DNA of 59,735 bases from Chloroflexota bacterium (lineage in GTDB: Bacteria > Chloroflexota > Limnocylindria > P2-11E). Numbering within the stretch: position 1 is the first letter of the stretch; each line of letters opens with the position of its first letter. Shown one piece after another: positions 29,034 through 42,594 of the stretch. Made by a program: the position numbers and the translations under genes. The notes below the pieces were generated by a model. That model made no database searches. It worked only from the letters and a program-made list of their open reading frames with translations, and was not told the DNA's origin. The DNA lies in NCBI GenBank assembly GCA_005882765.1, contig VBDV01000113.1, positions 1 through 59,735 of the forward strand. The letters are read 5' to 3'.

Positions 29034-29342
29034 CTAGCTCGCCGCGAGGAGTCCCTCCCGCAACGGCGTTCCCCCAATGCGCACCTGCCGCACGACCTCG
29101 TTCGCGATCCGGCTCGTCTTTACGAGGCCGCTGAGCGCGAGGTCGAGACCGACCTCGCGAAGCTCCTCATATCCGAGCCCTCGATAGAGCTTGTTCGAGG
29201 CCACGTAGCACATCTCGTCGTACAGGAACGGCCAATCGACTGCCCGTCGTGACAAGCAAAACGAGATGAAATCGATCGCCACCTGAGCGATCCGATCTTC
29301 GGGCACCCCTTCCTTCCCCTTTGCCTTGTCGGCCTCGCGCAT
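29034..29342 (-). CDS. Hypothetical protein (~102 aa; ORF open to 29456)
   Basis: Protein-like segment DFISFCLSRRAVDWPFLYDEMCYVAS...YRGLGYEEL; followed by a terminator. Confidence 0.7.
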   Translation of the reverse strand: MREADKAKGKEGVPEDRIAQVAIDFISFCLSRRAVDWPFLYDEMCYVASNKLYRGLGYEELREVGLDLALSGLVKTSRIANEVVRQVRIGGTPLREGLLAAS

Positions 29343-29375
29343 GATCGTCAGGTGGTCGTCCGCGAACAAGACGAT

Positions 29376-29442
29376 CTGTCCACCAACTTCTCCACAGACT
29401 TCTCCACACGCTCGCGTGCGGCGGTCCACCGAGATATCCACA
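29376..29442 (+). promoter_or_regulatory. DnaA-box-like array
   Basis: CTGTCCACC 29376, TTCTCCACA 29388, TTCTCCACA 29400, CGGTCCACC 29422, ATATCCACA 29434. Confidence 0.6.
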
Positions 29443-29452
29443 GATGTGATAG

Positions 29453-30658
29453 TCATCGCGACCGGTGTCCGCTGAAGCGACGCCGCTCTTTTACCTCGCG
29501 TGCACTCGCGCGATCGAGCGCGCCGTCGCCGAAACGCGAGCGAACTGCATCTAACGCGGCGTTGAGCCGCGCGTGACGGGCGGCGTCGAATAATCCGAGC
29601 TGCTCGCCCGCGGTCACGCCCGAGACCGAAACGCCGATGAGCCGGACAGGGCTGGTTCGACCGCCTTCGCGATCCTGCGCAAGGGCGTCGCGAAGGAGCT
29701 GACGCGCGGTTCGATAGATCGTGACGTCGTCATCGGTTGGTTCACGAAGCGTGCGTTGACGCGTGCGGGTTTCGAACGGCGCGACGCGGAGCGTCATGGT
29801 GATCGTCCGCCCACGGAGGGTGTGATCGCGCAGGCGGCGACCGACTCCTTCCGCAAGGCGGAGAAGCGTCGACTCGATCTTCGCCGTGTCGAGCGTGTTC
29901 GCATCGAACGTATGCGAATGTCCAACGGATTTCGGCGTGTGCTCGCTCTGGACCTCGCCCTCGTCGATCCCGTTCGCGCGCTGCCAGATGTCCGTTCCGT
30001 GCTCCCCCAGGCGCGTCTCCAAGACCGACCGGTCGAAGGCGGCGAGCTGGCCGATCGTCCGGAGATCCCACCCCGCGAGCACTTCCCGCGTCCGCGGGCC
30101 GACGCCCCAAAGCCGCTCGAGGGGGAGTGGCGCGAGGAACGCCCCCTCGCCACCGGCGGGCACGATGACAAGGCCGTCCGGCTTCCGGAGGTCGGAACCG
30201 ACTTTCGCGCAGAGCTTGTTCGTGGCGACGCCGACCGAGACGACCAGTCCGCAGCGCTCCCGGACCGCCCGCTTGATCTGCGTGGCCATCGCGACAGCGC
30301 CGCCGAATAGATGTTCGGTCGCGGTGACGTCGAGGAAGGCCTCGTCGAGGGAGATCGGTTCGACCAGCGGTGTCTGCTCCTCGAATATCGCCATGACCGC
30401 GTCCGACGCTTCGACGTAGCGATCGAAGTTACCCGGCACGTAGATCCCGTCCGGGCAGAGCCGTCCAGCGATCGCGAGCGGCATCGCGGACCGGACGCCG
30501 AAGGCGCGTGCCTCGTAGGACGCGGCCATCACCACGCCGCGTTCGTTCGGGCCGTCGCCGCCGACGATCACCGGTTTGCCGCGGTACTCGGGATGGTCGC
30601 GCTGCTCGACCGACGCGTAGAAGGCGTCCAGGTCGCAGTGCAGGATGGCGCGCGTCAT
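29453..30658 (-). CDS. dinB: DNA polymerase IV (Y-family)
   Basis: HCDLDAFYASVE, AASYEAR.FGV.SAM, SLDEAFLD, SVGVATNKLCAK, QLGLF clamp motif. Confidence 0.95.
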   Translation of the reverse strand: MTRAILHCDLDAFYASVEQRDHPEYRGKPVIVGGDGPNERGVVMAASYEARAFGVRSAMPLAIAGRLCPDGIYVPGNFDRYVEASDAVMAIFEEQTPLVEPISLDEAFLDVTATEHLFGGAVAMATQIKRAVRERCGLVVSVGVATNKLCAKVGSDLRKPDGLVIVPAGGEGAFLAPLPLERLWGVGPRTREVLAGWDLRTIGQLAAFDRSVLETRLGEHGTDIWQRANGIDEGEVQSEHTPKSVGHSHTFDANTLDTAKIESTLLRLAEGVGRRLRDHTLRGRTITMTLRVAPFETRTRQRTLREPTDDDVTIYRTARQLLRDALAQDREGGRTSPVRLIGVSVSGVTAGEQLGLFDAARHARLNAALDAVRSRFGDGALDRASAREVKERRRFSGHRSR

Positions 30659-32912: not shown

Positions 32913-33524
32913 CTAGGACAGTTTGCGGATTACGCCGATGACCTTCCCTTGGATCTGCACATCCCGCGCGTAGATGGGGGACATGGCGCCGTTCGCGGGC
33001 TGCAGCCGGATACGGTCCTTCTCTTTGTAGAACCGCTTGAGCGTCGCGACATTGTCCTCGAGCACCGCGACGACGATGTCGCCGTCGCGCGCTGTGTTCT
33101 GCTCCTGCACGACGACGAAGTCGCCATCGTCGATGTGGTCCTCGATCATCGACTTACCGCGAACTTTCAGCACGAAGGTCTCGCGTCCGCGCCCCGCCGC
33201 GAGCTCGCTCGGGAGTCCGATGGTTTCGGAGCGGTCCTCGTAGGCGTGGATTGGCTGACCTGCGGCGATCTCGCCGACGACCGGAGCCTGCACCACCCGA
33301 CCGCCGTTCATGCCAGGGAGACTGAGGGCTCGTGACCGAGTGGCCTCCTTGTTGAGGCGCCCGTCCTTCTCGAGCTTGGTGAGGTGGTGATGAACGGCCG
33401 ATGTCGAGGCGAGCCCCACCGCCTCCGCGATCTCGCGCACGCTCGGGGGATATCCCCTTTCGGCGACGGCCTCGCGGATAAACGCCAGGATGCGGTCCGC
33501 CCGCTGCTGGTCTTGCTTTGTCAC
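32913..33524 (-). CDS. lexA: SOS repressor LexA
   Basis: GYPPSVREI HTH, AG cleavage site (IAAGQP), catalytic GKSM and TLKR. Confidence 0.97.
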   Translation of the reverse strand: MTKQDQQRADRILAFIREAVAERGYPPSVREIAEAVGLASTSAVHHHLTKLEKDGRLNKEATRSRALSLPGMNGGRVVQAPVVGEIAAGQPIHAYEDRSETIGLPSELAAGRGRETFVLKVRGKSMIEDHIDDGDFVVVQEQNTARDGDIVVAVLEDNVATLKRFYKEKDRIRLQPANGAMSPIYARDVQIQGKVIGVIRKLS

Positions 33525-33535
33525 GCTTGTTCCTG

Positions 33536-33565
33536 AGGGTAACCGAACGGATGTTCAGTTGTCAA
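33536..33565 (-). promoter_or_regulatory. lexA promoter with SOS box
   Basis: TTGACA(33565-33560)-18nt-TACCCT(33541-33536), with GAAC-ggat-GTTC (33545-33556) in the spacer. Confidence 0.85.
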
Positions 33566-35453: not shown

Positions 35454-37496
35454 GTGGCCCAAGCGCTTCGCCGGCCGGGGGTGCGCCTCGTCCTGACCAG
35501 CGCGACGCTGCTCTTTGTCGAGCTGGTGCTCCTGCGCTGGATCCCAGCCAACGTGACGTACATCGGTTTCTTCTCCAACTTCCTCTTGATGGCGAGCTTC
35601 CTCGGTATCGGCGTCGGGATCCTCTTCGGACGGCGTCTCGCGAACGCCGCGTGGTCACCCTTCCCGTTGCTGCTTCTGCTCGTCGTCGCCCTGATCCTCG
35701 GCGCGAAGCTGGACGTGCAGATCCGCGCGAGCGACGAGATCTTCTTCGGACTCGCGGAGAGCCACGCGGCCGACACGAACTTCCTGGTGCTCCCGCTCGT
35801 CTTCGTCCTCGTCGCCGCGGTGATGGGCGCGCTCGCGCTGCCGCTCGGCTCGCTCCTCCGCTCGATGCCCCCTCTCCGCGCGTACGCCCTCGATATCGCA
35901 GGGTCGATCGGCGGCATCGCGCTCTTTGTGGGCCTCTCCGTCCTGAGCTTGCAGCCGCCGGTCTGGTTCGGCGTCCTCGGAGCCCTGCTGGCCGGCCGCG
36001 CGCTCGCGTATCCGCTGAGCCGCTTCTCCATCGTCAACGGCGCATTCGTCATCGCGACCTGCGGACTCGTGATCGGCGCGACGGCCAGTGGCGATCTCTG
36101 GTCTCCCTACTACCGGATCAGCGTGCAGCGCCCGGCGGGATCGGATGCGACGATCTCGGTGAACGGGATCCCGCACCAGGCGATGCATGCGGTAGACATC
36201 GACCCGCCCGCGGCCGAGCCCTTCTACGATCAGATCTACCAGTGGTTTCCGGGCCGGAGCTTCGGGCACGCGCTCGTCGTCGGCGCCGGAAGCGGGACGG
36301 ACACGGCGTATGCCCTCGCCAACAAGGTCCAGGCCATCGACGCCGTGGAGATCGACCCGCGCATCCTGGAGCTTGGCGAGCGCGAGCATCCCAATCATCC
36401 GTACTCCGACCCGCGCGTCCGCGAGTACGTCGACGACGGGCGCGCATTCCTTCGGTCCAGCGGGGATCGCTACGACCTGATCGTGTTCGCCCTTCCCGAC
36501 TCGCTGACGCTCGTGAGCACGAGCGCGAACGTCCGCCTGGAGTCCTTTCTCTTTACGCGCGAGGCGTTCGCGAGCGCGCGCGACCACCTCGCGCCGAACG
36601 GCGTGTTCGTCCTCTACAACTACTACCGGCAGCCGTGGCTCCTCGCGAAGATCGAGGGAATGCTGACGGACGTCTTTGGGACCGAGCCGCTGGTGCGCGA
36701 GTACGACGCTCCGATTGGTTCCGCGGCGGTGCTCGCGGCGAGCCCCGGCGACCTTCAGGTGTCGGGTCAGGCGGCGCTCCTGAGCGCGGCGATCGCGAAC
36801 GACCGACCTGCCGCCGCGACGGATGACTGGCCCTTCCTCTATCTACGCGATCGTGTGATCGCGCCCTACTACATCCTTGCGCTCATCTTCGTCCTTCTGG
36901 TCGCCGGCATAGCGACCGTGCTCGCCGCGCGCCTCGTGTCCGCACCGATTGCGGCGTTCAGTCCGCACTTCTTCCTCCTCGGCGCGGCGTTCCTACTCCT
37001 CGAAACCCGGAGCCTCACCATGTTCAGCCTTCTGTTCGGCACGACCTGGACGGTCAACGCGATGGCCTTCGCGGCGATCCTTACCAGCGTGCTGCTCGCG
37101 ATCGGCGTGAACGCGATGACGAAGCCGCCGCGCGCGGTGCTCTACTCGGGTCTTGGGGTCACGCTCGTCATCGCGTATGTGCTCCCACCGTCGGCGCTGC
37201 TCTTCGATCCGGCGTGGCTCCGCTACCTCGCGGCGGCGGTTATCGCTTTTGCCCCGGTGTTCTTCGCGAACCTCGTGTTCACGGCGTCGTTCCGAGAAAC
37301 GCGGACCGCCGACATGGCGTTCGCCTCGAATCTCATCGGCGCGATGATCGGCGGCGTCCTCGAGTACGCCGCGCTCGTCACGGGTTACCAGGCGCTCCTG
37401 ATCATCATCGCCGCTCTCTACGTGGCGGCGTATCTCGCGGGTTCACGCGTCCGGCTCTTGGCGGATCGCCGCCTGGTCACGGCCGAGCCGGCTTAG
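35454..37496 (+). CDS. Membrane-embedded spermidine synthase-like SAM-dependent protein
   Basis: N- and C-terminal TM bundles around VVGAGSGTD, VEIDP, DDGRAF, ATDDWPFLY. Confidence 0.85.
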   Translation: MAQALRRPGVRLVLTSATLLFVELVLLRWIPANVTYIGFFSNFLLMASFLGIGVGILFGRRLANAAWSPFPLLLLLVVALILGAKLDVQIRASDEIFFGLAESHAADTNFLVLPLVFVLVAAVMGALALPLGSLLRSMPPLRAYALDIAGSIGGIALFVGLSVLSLQPPVWFGVLGALLAGRALAYPLSRFSIVNGAFVIATCGLVIGATASGDLWSPYYRISVQRPAGSDATISVNGIPHQAMHAVDIDPPAAEPFYDQIYQWFPGRSFGHALVVGAGSGTDTAYALANKVQAIDAVEIDPRILELGEREHPNHPYSDPRVREYVDDGRAFLRSSGDRYDLIVFALPDSLTLVSTSANVRLESFLFTREAFASARDHLAPNGVFVLYNYYRQPWLLAKIEGMLTDVFGTEPLVREYDAPIGSAAVLAASPGDLQVSGQAALLSAAIANDRPAAATDDWPFLYLRDRVIAPYYILALIFVLLVAGIATVLAARLVSAPIAAFSPHFFLLGAAFLLLETRSLTMFSLLFGTTWTVNAMAFAAILTSVLLAIGVNAMTKPPRAVLYSGLGVTLVIAYVLPPSALLFDPAWLRYLAAAVIAFAPVFFANLVFTASFRETRTADMAFASNLIGAMIGGVLEYAALVTGYQALLIIIAALYVAAYLAGSRVRLLADRRLVTAEPA

Positions 37497-38821
37497 ACGA
37501 CTTCGCGCGTCTCGCCGAGGTCGCGGAACCGGGTGAGGTCGGACTGGAAGTGAAGGTCGAAGTCGCCGGTCGGTCCGTTGCGATGTTTCGCGAGCTTGAG
37601 GCGGACGACACTCTCTTCGCGGTCCTTCCGGTCCTTTTGCCAAAGGAACAGGACGAGATCGGCGTCCGCCTCGAGGGCGCCGCTCTCTCTGAGGTCAGAG
37701 AGCATCGGCTCGGTCCCACGCTGCTCGATCTGCCGCGAGAGCTGCGAGATCGCGATCACCGGGACCTCGAGCTCGCGCGCGATCGCCTTCAGCGCGCGGC
37801 TGATACGGGCGACCTCCAGGACGCGACTCTCTTCGTTCCCCACGCCTTCGATGAGCTGCAGGTAGTCGATCACGACCAGGTCCAGGCCGCGCTCGGCCTG
37901 GAGGCGGCGCGATTTCGCGAGGATGTCGGTGACCGTCAGGCGGCTCGACTCCTCCACGAAGATCGGCGCCTGCTGTAGCTCGCTCGACGCCGCGGAGATC
38001 GCGGTGAACTCCTGCGTGGAGAGGCGACCGCGGCGCATGCGGTTGCCGTCGATCTCCGCGAGCATCGACACAAGGCGCTGGACCACCTGCATCTCGCTCA
38101 TCTCCATCGAGAAGAACGCGCATGTCTTCCGCTGCACGACCGCCGCATGCTCGACGACGTTCAGCGCGAGGCTCGTCTTGCCGAGACCCGGACGGCCCGC
38201 GATGAGGATGAGATCAGAGGCCTGGAGTCCACCGGTCTTCTTGTCGACCGACTCGATGCCCGTCCGAATCCCGAGGCGCATGTCGCCACGCGCGTCGATT
38301 TGCTCGGCGTAGCGGCGGAGCGCGACGTCCAGAGGGACGATGTCCCGATGGAGCGTCGATTCGCTCACCGCGAACAGCAGCTCCTGCGCGTCCGACACCG
38401 CGGCGGCCGATTCCTCGCGGGTCAGCGCGAGACGGGCGATCTCGTTGGCCACCCCGATCAGCCGACGAAGGAGCGCGGTGCGTTCGACGATCGCCGCGTA
38501 GCTCGACGCGTGCGCGACCGTCGGCACGTTCTGCATGAGGCCGACCAGGAACTGCGAGCCCCCGATCGCATCGAGCTCAGCGTGCGCGACGAGGTCCGAC
38601 TGCACGTTGGCGAACCCCACTTGCTCGCTGCGCTCGGCGACGCGGGCGATGGCCGCGAGCACGATCCGATGCTGCTCGCGTGACAGGTCCGCAGGCCCGA
38701 GGCGTCCGCGCGCGACCTCGTTGTAGAGGGCGCCGTCCATGAGCATCGCGCCGAGGAGCGATGCCTCGGCCTCGGGCTTCTCTGGCGGCGGCTTGACGCC
38801 GCGGTCGGTCTGCACCGTCAT
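37493..38821 (-). CDS. dnaB: Replicative helicase DnaB paralog 2
   Basis: N-terminal EAEASLLG, GRPGLGKT, SMEM, DYLQL, SQLSR, LRESG, KHRNGP; ATGA-coupled to paralog 1. Confidence 0.93.
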   Translation of the reverse strand: MTVQTDRGVKPPPEKPEAEASLLGAMLMDGALYNEVARGRLGPADLSREQHRIVLAAIARVAERSEQVGFANVQSDLVAHAELDAIGGSQFLVGLMQNVPTVAHASSYAAIVERTALLRRLIGVANEIARLALTREESAAAVSDAQELLFAVSESTLHRDIVPLDVALRRYAEQIDARGDMRLGIRTGIESVDKKTGGLQASDLILIAGRPGLGKTSLALNVVEHAAVVQRKTCAFFSMEMSEMQVVQRLVSMLAEIDGNRMRRGRLSTQEFTAISAASSELQQAPIFVEESSRLTVTDILAKSRRLQAERGLDLVVIDYLQLIEGVGNEESRVLEVARISRALKAIARELEVPVIAISQLSRQIEQRGTEPMLSDLRESGALEADADLVLFLWQKDRKDREESVVRLKLAKHRNGPTGDFDLHFQSDLTRFRDLGETREVV

Positions 38822-41403
38822 GCCGGCGGGCCGCCCTCGTCGGAGGCTTTGGAGAAGAACTTCGCCTGCTCGCTCTCGAAGAGGAGCTGGAATCCGCCGG
38901 TCGGACCATTGCGGTTCTTCGCGACGGAACCGTTGATGAGCCGCGGCGCGCCCGCCGGCGTCTCCTCGCGGTCGCGCCACAGCATGATCACGATGTCGGC
39001 ATCCTGCTCCAGCGCGCCCGAGTTGTGGCTCACGATTCCGTCCGCCAGCCAGCACGAGGTGTCGGGGACGGTAAGGTCGTACACGAGTTGCTCGCCATCA
39101 GCTACAACGTCGATCACCTCGTCCCAGAAGAGATCGTTTGTGGCAAGACCCATCAGCGCGGAATCTTCGAGGAGCACCGCGTACGTCGCTAGATGCGGCC
39201 GCGAAGGTGAGAACGTGAAGTGCCCGTTCCCGCTGTGTGAGGTTCCGCGGAGGCGCGCCATTTCGCGAGTTGTGATCTCTCGGTCACGCATCCGTCCGCG
39301 AACAAGAGCAAACACCTCGCGCGGAATGGTGTCGACATTCGTGTTCGGGGCGATGCCCGCTGTCGCGGCCATCACCGCGGCTGCGGGCTCCACCCGAGGC
39401 CCGAAGGTGCCGATGAGCTCGATGAATCGTCTCTGAGCTTCGGTCCCAGAAACGTGGACTTGGTAGCCGGGAAGATATCCCGCCTCTTCGACCCGCACCG
39501 TTCTCGTGACAATGTCGAACCGCAGGAGCAGCGCTGCGACGTCGCCGGCGAGTCCGATGCTGTTCGTCGCGTAATACACGCTGTGACCCCCGCCACCTTT
39601 GTGGACGCTAATCGATCCGTCTGTCGCCCAGAGGTGTCGCAGCAGGATTGCGAGTTGCTTGTTTGCCAGACGGAACGCATCGCATGGCACACGCTTCTGA
39701 TATGAGCGTTGGCCGAAAATGCCGAGATCGCGAAGCCATGCATTCACGCCGGCGGGATGCCAGCGATTCCCATTTCCGCTAATGAGTAGTTGGTGCCAAT
39801 TGCCGACCTCCAAATAGCGAGTCACTTTGGCGCCGAACTCGTTGATCGCAGCCGCGGCGACGAAGCGGCTGTTCTCCTCCGAACTTGTCGTATACCGCAT
39901 CGGCGCGCCTTTGATGTAGCTTCCGTCTCCGATCATCTGGCCAAGAAGGCCGACTCTTTCGCTTGGCCACTCGGTGATCGATTTGGGTTCGGGGAGTCGC
40001 CGCGCGATGGCAAGTCGGTCGCCGGTCGTCAGATCGCGAACGTGACGCCATCCTGCGAACGCCCGAAGCCGATGGTCGGCTGTAGCGCGGATGGATCGGC
40101 CGCTCGTGAGACGCACTCTGAAAACTGGCCGTCGACCGACTGCCCAAATCTTCTCGGTTCGCGCGGTCACGATGCGGTCGTTTTCGACCGAGAGAACCTC
40201 TGGGCAGGTACCGACGAGTTCGGAGATGGGCACGCGGCGTCCATCCGCGAGACAAACGATGGTGTCTCCGGTCACGCATTCGCGAAGGGTGGAGAGCTTG
40301 GGCTCCCCGCCCGAGTCTCCGGCGGCGCGTGATAGTTGCGAGAGACCAATGATGACCACTCCGAGCTCGCGGGCCAATGACTTCAGATTCCTCGTGATCG
40401 TCGCGATCTCTTGAACGCGGTTCTCCTCGTCGCCGCCGCCTCGAACGAGTTGCAGGTAGTCGACGATGATGACTTCGATCTTCTCGTGCGTGCTCGCGCG
40501 GCGGGCCTTCGTTCGCAGCTCCATGATCGAGATGCCCGGCGTGTCGTCGATGAACACGGGCAAGCCGTGCAGGGCCGCGGCGGCATCCGTGTCGATGATG
40601 TTCCCGGTCCGGAGCGCGAGCAGGTCCATGCGCGAGTTCAGCGCGAGGTAGCGCGAGACGATCTGCTTCGCGTCCATTTCCAGCGAGAAGAGCAACACCG
40701 GGTGGCCGCGGCGTGCGACGTTGAAGCTCATCCCGAGCGCGAGGCTCGTCTTGCCGACGGACGGCCGGGCGGCGAGGACGATGAGGTCGCCGACGGTGAA
40801 CCCTTCGGTGTAGTAGTCGACCTCGCGGAACCCTGACGGGATCCCGCTCACCTCGAACGGGCGCTCCATGCGGTCGGTGAGGTGCTCGTAGTTGGACTGC
40901 AGCGAGGCGGTGATGTGACGGAGCTGTGCATTTGCCGACTCGTCTCGAAGCGCGAAGAGTCGCTGCTCGGCGCGGTCGAGCGCGAGGGCGATGTCGGTCG
41001 GTTCGTCGTACGCATCCGCCGCGATCGACGTGGCCGCACCGAGCAGGCGCCGCAAGATCGCCCGGTCGCGGACGATGTGGCCGTAGCGGTCGATCTCGGC
41101 CGCTGTCGGAACGCCATCCGCGAGTGCGCGGAGGTAGGCCTGGCCGCCCGCTCGGTCGAGCTCCTCGCGCCGGGAGAGCTCCATCTGGATGGTGAGCGGA
41201 TCGATCCGCTCACGCCGTTCGAGAAGGGCCTGGGCCGCGTCGTAGATCCGCTGGTGCCGCGCGATGTAAAAATCATCGACGCGGAGCAGGTCCGCGACCT
41301 TGAAGATGGCATCACGGTCGATGAGGAGGCTTCCGAGTACCTGCTGTTCCGCGCTCTCGTCGAACGGGACCTGCCGGTCGGGCGCGCGAGTCTCGACGGT
41401 CAT
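38818..41403 (-). CDS. dnaB: Replicative helicase DnaB paralog 1, intein-containing
   Basis: AEQQVLG, ARPSVGKT, SLEM, DYLQL, SQLSR, LRE|intein|SGALEQDAD, KNRNGP. Confidence 0.95.
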   Translation of the reverse strand: MTVETRAPDRQVPFDESAEQQVLGSLLIDRDAIFKVADLLRVDDFYIARHQRIYDAAQALLERRERIDPLTIQMELSRREELDRAGGQAYLRALADGVPTAAEIDRYGHIVRDRAILRRLLGAATSIAADAYDEPTDIALALDRAEQRLFALRDESANAQLRHITASLQSNYEHLTDRMERPFEVSGIPSGFREVDYYTEGFTVGDLIVLAARPSVGKTSLALGMSFNVARRGHPVLLFSLEMDAKQIVSRYLALNSRMDLLALRTGNIIDTDAAAALHGLPVFIDDTPGISIMELRTKARRASTHEKIEVIIVDYLQLVRGGGDEENRVQEIATITRNLKSLARELGVVIIGLSQLSRAAGDSGGEPKLSTLRECVTGDTIVCLADGRRVPISELVGTCPEVLSVENDRIVTARTEKIWAVGRRPVFRVRLTSGRSIRATADHRLRAFAGWRHVRDLTTGDRLAIARRLPEPKSITEWPSERVGLLGQMIGDGSYIKGAPMRYTTSSEENSRFVAAAAINEFGAKVTRYLEVGNWHQLLISGNGNRWHPAGVNAWLRDLGIFGQRSYQKRVPCDAFRLANKQLAILLRHLWATDGSISVHKGGGGHSVYYATNSIGLAGDVAALLLRFDIVTRTVRVEEAGYLPGYQVHVSGTEAQRRFIELIGTFGPRVEPAAAVMAATAGIAPNTNVDTIPREVFALVRGRMRDREITTREMARLRGTSHSGNGHFTFSPSRPHLATYAVLLEDSALMGLATNDLFWDEVIDVVADGEQLVYDLTVPDTSCWLADGIVSHNSGALEQDADIVIMLWRDREETPAGAPRLINGSVAKNRNGPTGGFQLLFESEQAKFFSKASDEGGPPA
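39022..40278 (-). mobile_element. Intein with LAGLIDADG homing endonuclease (419 aa)
   Basis: Starts CVTGD, block B TADH, LLGQMIGDG and LLRHLWATDG motifs, ends VYDLTV...SHN before Ser+1. Confidence 0.95.
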
Positions 41404-41409
41404 GCGGGA

Positions 41410-41428
41410 AGTCTAGAACACGCGTTCT
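41410..41428 (-). promoter_or_regulatory. SOS box abutting a leaderless -10 element of the dnaB operon
   Basis: AGAAC-acgc-GTTCT (41415-41428); TAGACT (41415-41410) lies 6 nt before the ATG. Confidence 0.75.
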
Positions 41429-41581
41429 AATGGCCGAAGAGCGTACGCGCGCAGGCCGTGAAAGGCCGGTAGACCACTAGAACGCTGTTCTGTCGGCATG
41501 AGTCACATCCGAACTGGCTGCCCGGCGGAAGCTCGCCCGACAATTCCTCTTTAGCTGACATTGGGCATGACGGCTAGCAAT

Positions 41582-41646
41582 TCGTCCACCATCTTCTCCA
41601 CCAACTCATCCACGATTGCTCCACCAGTTTTCGCGAACGTGGACAA
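41582..41646. promoter_or_regulatory. DnaA-box-like array
   Basis: TCGTCCACC 41582, TTCTCCACC 41594, TCATCCACG 41606, TGCTCCACC 41617, inverted TTGTCCACG 41646-41638. Confidence 0.5.
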
Positions 41647-41682
41647 CGAAGCGGATCTTCATTGCGTAGTCTCGGCACTGTC

Positions 41683-42594
41683 TTGCATGTTCTTGTGACC
41701 GGCGGCGCGGGATTCCTCGGCAGCCATGTGGTCGATGCGCTCCTCAAGGCCGGCGACGACGTCGTGGTGGTGGACGATCTCTCGACGGGAGATCGCGCGA
41801 ATCTCGATCCGCGCGCCGAACTGCGCATCGCCGATATCGCCGACCTCTCGGCGCTTCAGCGCGAGCTCGGCAGCCGACGGATCGATGCGGTCGTGCATTG
41901 CGCTGCGAAGACCAAGGTCGTCGAATCGATGACGAAGAAGGACCTCTACGAGCGCGTGATCGTCGGCGGGACGCGGAACGTGATCGAGACCACGCGACGG
42001 CTCGGCGCGTCGATCGTCGTGAATATCTCCACCGGTGGGGCGATCTACGGCGAAACGCCAATCTGTGCCGACGAGAACGTCCCGGTCGATCCGCAATCGA
42101 ACTACGGCAGATTCAAGGCTGCGGCGGAAAAGCTCGTCGAACTGTCCGACCTTCGGGCGGTGACCCTTCGGCTTGCGAACATCTACGGTCCACGCCAGCG
42201 CACCGATCTCGAGGGCGGCGTGATCGCCATCTTCCTCGGCTGCTGGAAACGGGGCGAGCCGATCACCCTGTTCGGCGATGGCAGCTACGAGCGTGACTTC
42301 GTGTATGTCGCGGACGTCGTCGAGGCCGTACTCGCGGCGCTTGCCGGGACATACGCGGGCATCTTCAACATCGGCACCGGCATTGCGACGAGCGTGAATG
42401 AGCTCGTCTCGGCGTTCAGCATGATCCTCGGACCCCCACCCAGCGTGCGCCAGGCGCCAGCGCGTCCAGCCGAGGTGTTGCGTGCCTGTGTGAACCCGAC
42501 GAAAGCGGCGCGGGAGGGACTCTGGCGTCCAACGACCGCGCTGGCCGAAGGACTCCGGCGCACGGCGGCCGCTGAAGGAGTCTTGTTGGCGTAA
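41683..42594 (+). CDS. NAD-dependent epimerase/dehydratase (GalE-like)
   Basis: VTGGAGFLGS, STGGAIYG, YGRFK, RLANIYGP, RDFVYV. Confidence 0.93.
   Translation: MHVLVTGGAGFLGSHVVDALLKAGDDVVVVDDLSTGDRANLDPRAELRIADIADLSALQRELGSRRIDAVVHCAAKTKVVESMTKKDLYERVIVGGTRNVIETTRRLGASIVVNISTGGAIYGETPICADENVPVDPQSNYGRFKAAAEKLVELSDLRAVTLRLANIYGPRQRTDLEGGVIAIFLGCWKRGEPITLFGDGSYERDFVYVADVVEAVLAALAGTYAGIFNIGTGIATSVNELVSAFSMILGPPPSVRQAPARPAEVLRACVNPTKAAREGLWRPTTALAEGLRRTAAAEGVLLA

Follow-up and report, generated by a model that had tools for sequence, protein, structure and literature searches.

Genes for replicative helicases usually count as housekeeping genes outside the SOS regulon. The Gram-positive LexA operator has the form CGAAC...GTTCG. 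LexA of Dehalococcoides, which belongs to the Chloroflexota, reportedly bound a box of the Gram-positive type (a 2002 paper in J Bacteriol), and to our knowledge no dnaB target was named there.

In both Bacillus subtilis and Mycobacterium tuberculosis, GAAC-N4-GTTC is the documented motif of LexA (PMC3323433). A study of M. tuberculosis locates such a motif in the dnaB promoter region and notes that DNA damage induces the gene in a partly RecA-dependent manner (PMC3381160). The LexA ChIP-seq peak at M. tuberculosis dnaB was seen by its height, was unconfirmed by a formal peak caller and is possibly weak, and some LexA sites of this organism are bound without regulating, according to the same study (PMC3381160). 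An excerpt of another study places M. tuberculosis dnaB among the promoters regulated by an SOS box and reports that it is still induced in a recA/pafBC double knock-down (PMC8151990). In Leptospira, the excerpted expression data give no induction of dnaB, with a fold change of 0.61 (PMC3789691). The excerpted portion of an SOS review mentions dnaB only in another context (PMC9578287). Our literature search found no paper on LexA in Limnocylindria. Among the matches listed, there was no further LexA-regulated dnaB beyond that of M. tuberculosis and nothing relevant on LexA of Chloroflexi or Dehalococcoides or on paired DnaB paralogues.

The locus described here belongs to a member of the Limnocylindria. 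A 16-bp palindrome at its dnaB promoter is likely to be an operator for the organism's own LexA, placed on a probably leaderless operon of two helicase genes that would be derepressed by DNA damage.

The dnaB1 promoter and its palindrome

The window, that is, the whole stretch of 59,735 nt that was analysed, is contig C22 of an assembly of 2.75 Mb (195 contigs, 87% complete, 67% G+C). Its minus strand carries dnaB1 (38818-41403), which encodes a predicted replicative DNA helicase of 861 aa that an intein interrupts, and dnaB2 (37493-38821), which encodes a 442-aa DnaB paralogue. The start ATG of dnaB1 occupies 41401-41403 on the minus strand, and the predicted transcription start of a leaderless mRNA is placed at the same position.

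The candidate LexA (SOS) operator is the perfect palindrome TAGAAC-acgc-GTTCTA, which reads TAGAACacgcGTTCTA on the plus strand and spans 41414-41429. Within it, AGAACacgcGTTCT occupies 41415-41428 and the 12-nt core GAAC-N4-GTTC, GAACacgcGTTC, occupies 41416-41427. The distance between the box and the dnaB1 ATG is 13 nt. Read along the minus strand, the promoter consists of the -10 hexamer TAGACT (41415 to 41410), the six nucleotides tcccgc and the ATG (41403 to 41401), and the hexamer overlaps the operator by 2 nt. The preliminary description had placed AGAAC-acgc-GTTCT at 41415-41428, with a core in common with the box at lexA, and had noted an adjoining TAGACT that ends 6 nt before the dnaB ATG; the coordinates, the sequence and the spacing are all correct, and the hexamer and the operator not only adjoin but overlap.

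The -35 region of the dnaB1 promoter is poor in this window. A scan of 41300-41750 for two-hexamer promoters and terminators returned no -35/-10 pair and no terminator, and an Rfam scan of 41250-41800 returned no match at E-values up to 1. RNA-library contigs from three soil metatranscriptome runs of one study (shares 0.07, 0.05, and 0.00) include a single 170-nt contig in dnaB1 (41108-41277). The remaining contigs comprise one within the neighbouring epimerase gene and two partial matches, and none reaches the promoter or covers 41338-41672.

Because 6 nt separate the -10 hexamer from the ATG, the dnaB1 transcript is probably leaderless, beginning at or beside the start codon. Upstream of the ATG, an in-frame TAG is found at a distance of 12 nt, and there is no purine-rich Shine-Dalgarno sequence between the -10 hexamer and the ATG. 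In addition, the N-terminus MT(V/L)ET of DnaB1 is kept from residue 1 in relatives. Across the genome, -10 hexamers often stand immediately ahead of start codons, which fits the leaderless reading of dnaB1: in 99 of 491 ORFs (20%), a TANNNT hexamer stops 5-9 nt short of the start, compared with 0.46% of random positions, when the ORFs are confined to those that are long, have a high third-position G+C and have their first start codon within 6 codons of an in-frame stop. The leaderless promoter proposed in the preliminary description is thus supported by the -10 spacing, the absent Shine-Dalgarno sequence and the genome-wide enrichment, and it remains a prediction. As a separate observation, the 99 cases among the 491 ORFs with a fixed N-terminus suggest that leaderless genes are frequent in this lineage.

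The hexamers of relatives are TAGACT, TAGAAT, TAAACT, GATACT or of the ATAATG type, mostly 6-10 nt before the start codon. In one subclade (L056, L057, L073, L076, L089, and L097), a leader of about 25 nt with GGAGG follows the same box. Therefore, the operator is the constant feature of these promoters, and the leaderless start is not.

Conservation of the box and alternative readings

All 26 loci of the order carry the exact core GAAC-N4-GTTC upstream of dnaB1, which becomes 24 of 24 when two loci from unpublished genomes, L009 (G021) and L015 (G011), are left out. A search of public sequences with DnaB2 yielded 61 Chloroflexota loci, of which five lack dnaB1 and two have the dnaB1 start off the locus. 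The other 54, with a dnaB1 start and at least 80 nt of upstream sequence, all carry the exact core at DnaB1 identities of 70-96%; the sets of 26 and 54 have genomes in common, and relatives are non-independent samples. Conservation of the box at orthologous operons, which the preliminary description had proposed as a check on its reading, is therefore found in both sets.

The sequence around the dnaB1 box diverges freely among relatives, and the position of the box relative to the -10 hexamer is kept. In 25 of the 26 loci, the box lies 19-47 nt from the predicted dnaB1 start. In the second family of the order, the box is about 130 nt upstream of dnaB1, inside a TTGACC...CATGCT promoter. In sister genera, it fills the spacer between a TTGACA -35 hexamer and the -10 hexamer, with the same geometry as at lexA. 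No LexA box was found within about 400 nt upstream of dnaB in 15 regions from 14 genomes of the sister families of the class. Judged from these upstream regions, the LexA box at dnaB is lineage-specific, not general.

A second type of site lies further upstream. Three DnaA-box-like 9-mers, TTCTCCACC, TCATCCACG, and TTGTCCACG, are located at 41594-41646, 190-245 nt upstream of dnaB1. All 30 related loci have such 9-mers (of the TTGTCCACA type) upstream of dnaB, compared with a genome density of 0.13 per 400 nt, and the 9-mers are often paired, 24 nt apart (L005-L034). The dnaA gene is 84-258 kb from dnaB in the three genomes that have both on one contig. Therefore, the sites are probably a second regulatory input to the dnaB promoter rather than a replication origin. 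Elsewhere in the window, three one-mismatch 9-mers of this kind (TTCTCCACA twice and ATATCCACA) fall within 55 nt at 29388-29442; they lie in the 5' end of an ORF of 140 residues (29034-29456), which itself overlaps the dinB stop codon.

LexA could bind the palindrome with a negligible effect on the helicases, or with basal fine-tuning, and dnaB could be mainly under the upstream DnaA-box-like sites. The 30 loci with these sites include class relatives without a LexA box, in line with such a scheme, as are the M. tuberculosis sites cited above that are bound without apparent regulation. However, in all lineages examined, the operator either overlaps the -10 hexamer or occupies the spacer between the -35 and -10 hexamers, which is the classical position for repression, and exact retention at 54 of 54 loci amid drifting flanks is not what one would expect of a site without effect. 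We consider a merely fine-tuning LexA unlikely and favour an operator that represses.

The region upstream of dnaB1 contains another palindrome, AGAAC-gct-GTTCT (AGAACgctGTTCT, 41479-41491), with N3 spacing. It is the only AGAAC-N3-GTTCT in the 2.75-Mb genome and lies about 50 nt from the N4 operator, so that a chance placement is unlikely and a second, cooperating LexA operator might be suspected. However, GAAC-N3-GTTC is found upstream of dnaB1 in none of 25 relatives, L018, which has the closest homologous flank, reads AGAACgggaTTCC at this position, and all credible sites of the genome have N4 spacing. A cooperating N3 operator is accordingly quite improbable. The palindrome is probably non-functional as an operator and may be a decayed or slipped copy of a box. 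The preliminary description was right about its presence at 41479-41491; its use as an operator is what the spacing and the relatives speak against.

The lexA gene lies in the same window (32913-33524, minus strand) and encodes a 203-aa protein with the Pfam domains LexA_DNA_bind and Peptidase_S24, starting with GTG. The LexA operator of its promoter, GAACggatGTTC, is located at 33545-33556, 21 nt upstream of the GTG (33524). On the minus strand, the promoter reads TTGACA-ac-TGAACATCCGTTCG-GTTACCCT. The order TTGACA, box, -10 hexamer is found at lexA in 30 of 30 loci of the class, with LexA identities of 55-100%, and in 28 of 28 when G011 and G021 are left out. A dinB-like gene for a Y-family polymerase (29453-30658) lies near lexA, with no GAAC-N4-GTTC upstream and no matrix match above 12 bits.

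Across the genome, 12 of the 29 GAAC-N4-GTTC sites adjoin gene starts. These sites adjoin lexA, dnaB1, uvrB, an imuA-like/imuB-like pair, dnaE2, and an Rv2578c-like radical SAM gene; further boxes adjoin a DEAH helicase gene (two), a ligase-like fragment (two), and two small genes without a family match. In NCBIfam searches, UvrB and the error-prone polymerase score above the cut-offs, and ImuA, ImuB, the radical SAM protein, and the helicase score below them, though with strong E-values. The recA promoter is absent from the assembly, as the contig ends about 90 nt upstream of the recA match. A weight matrix was built from 11 other sites, with the dnaB site left out. The dnaB site scores 24.1 bits, tied fifth among all 20-mers of the 2.75-Mb genome, and the lexA box scores 21.6 bits; the training sites top this list by construction, and apart from them and the dnaB site the best score in the genome is 18.0 bits.

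Some of these boxes stand before less familiar genes. Two boxes 20 nt apart are located in a TTGACA...TATTAT promoter (G000 C5:1440 and 1460; L147) that adjoins a 189-residue fragment resembling the core of an ATP-dependent DNA ligase of the LigD type. LexA-type boxes also precede four genes without an NCBIfam match (G000 C62:9048, C28:18939, C12:16163, and C107:7794; L149-L152). By eye, their products are Cys-rich and HNH-like or LAGLIDADG-like, and two of the promoters have GTGTCAATAGGAC in common. The four genes may be SOS-induced mobile endonucleases.

The palindrome could in principle be a chance match or the site of a regulator other than LexA. The window contains exactly two GAAC-N4-GTTC sites, those of dnaB1 and lexA, and shuffled sequences contain 0.88 on average and at least two in 21 of 100 shuffles, so that the window count alone is not significant. 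Nor is the bare core enriched genome-wide at N4, with 29 sites compared with 28-124 at other spacings. Against this stand the extended motif upstream of lexA in all 30 loci and of canonical SOS genes, the core kept at all 54 dnaB1 promoters, and AGAAC-N4-GTTCT, of which all five occurrences in the genome are in promoters. A chance match or another regulator is already disfavoured and is very improbable. We assign the palindrome to LexA because the same motif is found at lexA and at uvrB, imuA-imuB, and dnaE2, which is the usual signature of a LexA motif; the LexA-type operator that the preliminary description proposed for the helicase operon is borne out to this extent, as a prediction from sequence.

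That the box governs the divergent NAD-dependent epimerase gene (plus strand, from about 41662-41683) and not dnaB is extremely unlikely: the intergenic region 41404-41682 is common to both genes, but the box lies about 235-255 nt from the epimerase start versus 13 nt from the dnaB1 ATG, and relatives differ in what lies upstream of the box but keep about 25 nt between the box and the dnaB1 start.

The DnaB pair and its linkage to lexA

DnaB1 contains the Pfam domains DnaB, DnaB_C, Intein_splicing, and LAGLIDADG_3, and DnaB2 contains DnaB and DnaB_C. Both proteins pass the TIGR00665 equivalog cut-off of 385.25, with scores of 409 for DnaB1 and 435.3 for DnaB2, and DnaB1 scores 791.5 against NCBIfam NF005852 (cut-off 780). 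The two are about 35% identical over the N-terminal query of 380 residues. The motifs GKT, DYLQL, and LRESG are kept in both proteins; we take them to be the Walker A motif, the Walker B motif, and the arginine finger, respectively. The intein, which has a LAGLIDADG endonuclease domain, is encoded at 39022-40278 (minus strand) and comprises residues 376-794 of DnaB1 (419 aa), inserted at the LRE|SGALEQDAD motif. Mycobacterial DnaB also carries an intein. Among relatives the DnaB1 intein is sporadic: most dnaB1 frames are about 450 residues long, and frames of 860-920 residues occur in a few loci only, for example in G018, G022, G036, and G038.

The ATG of dnaB2 overlaps the TGA of dnaB1 as ATGA (38821-38818). 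Therefore, the two genes are very probably co-transcribed and translationally coupled. A DnaB_C search of the whole genome, in an assembly that is 87% complete, found dnaB1, dnaB2, and one weak match on another contig. Relatives at 90-92% completeness have the same dnaB pair alone, plus weak matches to RecA folds. A prophage or plasmid origin of the pair was rejected, given the order-wide conservation of synteny and the absence of another DnaB from these searches.

The tandem dnaB1-dnaB2 is present in every genome of the family, as judged from a search in which the first 380 residues of DnaB1 were compared with 40 relatives. The order has a second family, represented by two genomes; the more complete one has the pair, and the other has a DnaB1 fragment at a contig start. 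Sister families outside the order have one DnaB, 45-49% identical to DnaB1, with the exception of G031, which also carries another, more distant one. A tree built from about 375 N-terminal residues places DnaB1, DnaB2, and the single DnaBs of the sister families in three groups of one Limnocylindria clade, with a support of 100/100 versus three enterobacterial sequences, a thin outgroup with which the three-way split is not resolved. The tree fits an origin of dnaB1 and dnaB2 by duplication in place, and so does the N-terminus MTV(E/Q)T, which is common to both paralogues. A broad protein search with DnaB2 returned orthologues only, 76-95% identical and called 'replicative DNA helicase' where named, and gave no clue to a separate origin of dnaB2.

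The helicase genes are also neighbours of lexA throughout the class. In 38 of 41 genomes of the class, lexA and dnaB are on one contig within 8 kb of each other, with distances read by eye from match coordinates; in the other three, they are on different contigs. In families f3 and f5 (7 genomes), dnaB directly follows lexA on the same strand after a gap of about 120-440 nt; family f4 (7 genomes) has them in divergent orientation at a distance of 1.2-1.9 kb. No such proximity was found, likewise by eye, in a sample of 72 other Chloroflexota at a completeness of at least 90%; 13 of the 72 have both genes on a common contig, no closer than 124 kb.

In the rest of the phylum, the exact core is found in 2 of 78 dnaB upstream regions from 70 other Chloroflexota genomes, with about 0.4 expected at the density of the present genome. 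LexA-like boxes at dnaB were recorded in other Chloroflexota families at L188 (G042), L163 (G077), and L159 (G085). One of these promoters has TATAAT followed directly by TAGAACACATGTTCGA, another has TATACT followed by a box with one mismatch, and the third genome also has a LexA-like box with one mismatch at dnaB. Judged from these promoters, LexA control of dnaB appears to have more than one origin within the Chloroflexota.

Proposed mechanism and comparison with known systems

We infer LexA binding, repression, induction, and a physiological role at the dnaB1 promoter from the palindrome, its position, its likeness to the operators of lexA and the SOS genes, and its conservation. A LexA dimer on the operator, one half-site of which, the promoter-proximal one, overlaps TAGACT, the -10 hexamer of the promoter predicted to drive dnaB1-dnaB2, would block RNA polymerase from the -10 region and the spacer and leave the helicases at basal expression. 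Upon DNA damage, RecA filaments would promote self-cleavage of LexA, and the dnaB promoter would open. Both helicase paralogues would then rise alongside UvrB, ImuA/ImuB/DnaE2, and other SOS products. The likely benefit, and the weakest step of this scheme, would be a bigger pool of helicase for reloading at collapsed or restarted forks.

A wider reading joins the operator with the paralogues and the gene neighbourhood. The lexA-dnaB pair of the Limnocylindria might be an old functional unit; in the present order, duplication in place would have given rise to an obligate DnaB1/DnaB2 pair with its own LexA operator, the two copies being translationally coupled and each catalytically intact. The helicase dose would be set by the SOS repressor and probably by DnaA too, and the paralogues would either form mixed hexamers or divide origin loading and damage-induced reloading between them. 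We offer this combination tentatively and hold it to be doubtful as a whole.

The locus is a conserved case in which the only DnaB genes found in a widespread, uncultured soil lineage sit behind a putative LexA operator. It adds to the hint from M. tuberculosis that the supply of helicase can belong to the damage response. The tandem DnaB pair, presumably co-regulated and order-wide in its distribution, lends itself naturally to the question of what purpose a second DnaB serves, and the class-wide travelling together of lexA and dnaB is a testable clue to a coupling between replication and the SOS response.

Comparison with described systems places the locus between precedent and novelty. The dnaB promoter of M. 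tuberculosis (Rv0058) and the one described here both contain a motif of the GAAC-N4-GTTC type in front of a replicative helicase gene. Unlike the M. tuberculosis case, the motif here is a perfect 16-bp palindrome that overlaps the -10 hexamer of a predicted leaderless promoter and is conserved across an order of the Chloroflexota, and two tandem DnaB paralogues lie behind it. The preliminary description regarded damage control as unusual for a replicative helicase; given M. tuberculosis dnaB and the few other Chloroflexota boxes, this is too strong.

The core, its spacing, the autoregulatory placement at lexA, and the overlap with the core promoter are the same as in the LexA operators of B. 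subtilis and Mycobacterium, whereas the flanks preferred here are TA-GAAC...GTTC-TA. In contrast to the Gram-positive LexA regulon, the regulon predicted here includes a replicative helicase and several genes for HNH-like or LAGLIDADG-like products. Dehalococcoides LexA belongs to the same phylum and has the same kind of box. A LexA box at dnaB therefore has precedents, and the present case is a moderately novel extension of the SOS response, in which the tandem DnaB paralogues behind a perfect putative operator on a predicted leaderless promoter and the class-wide linkage of lexA and dnaB are new.
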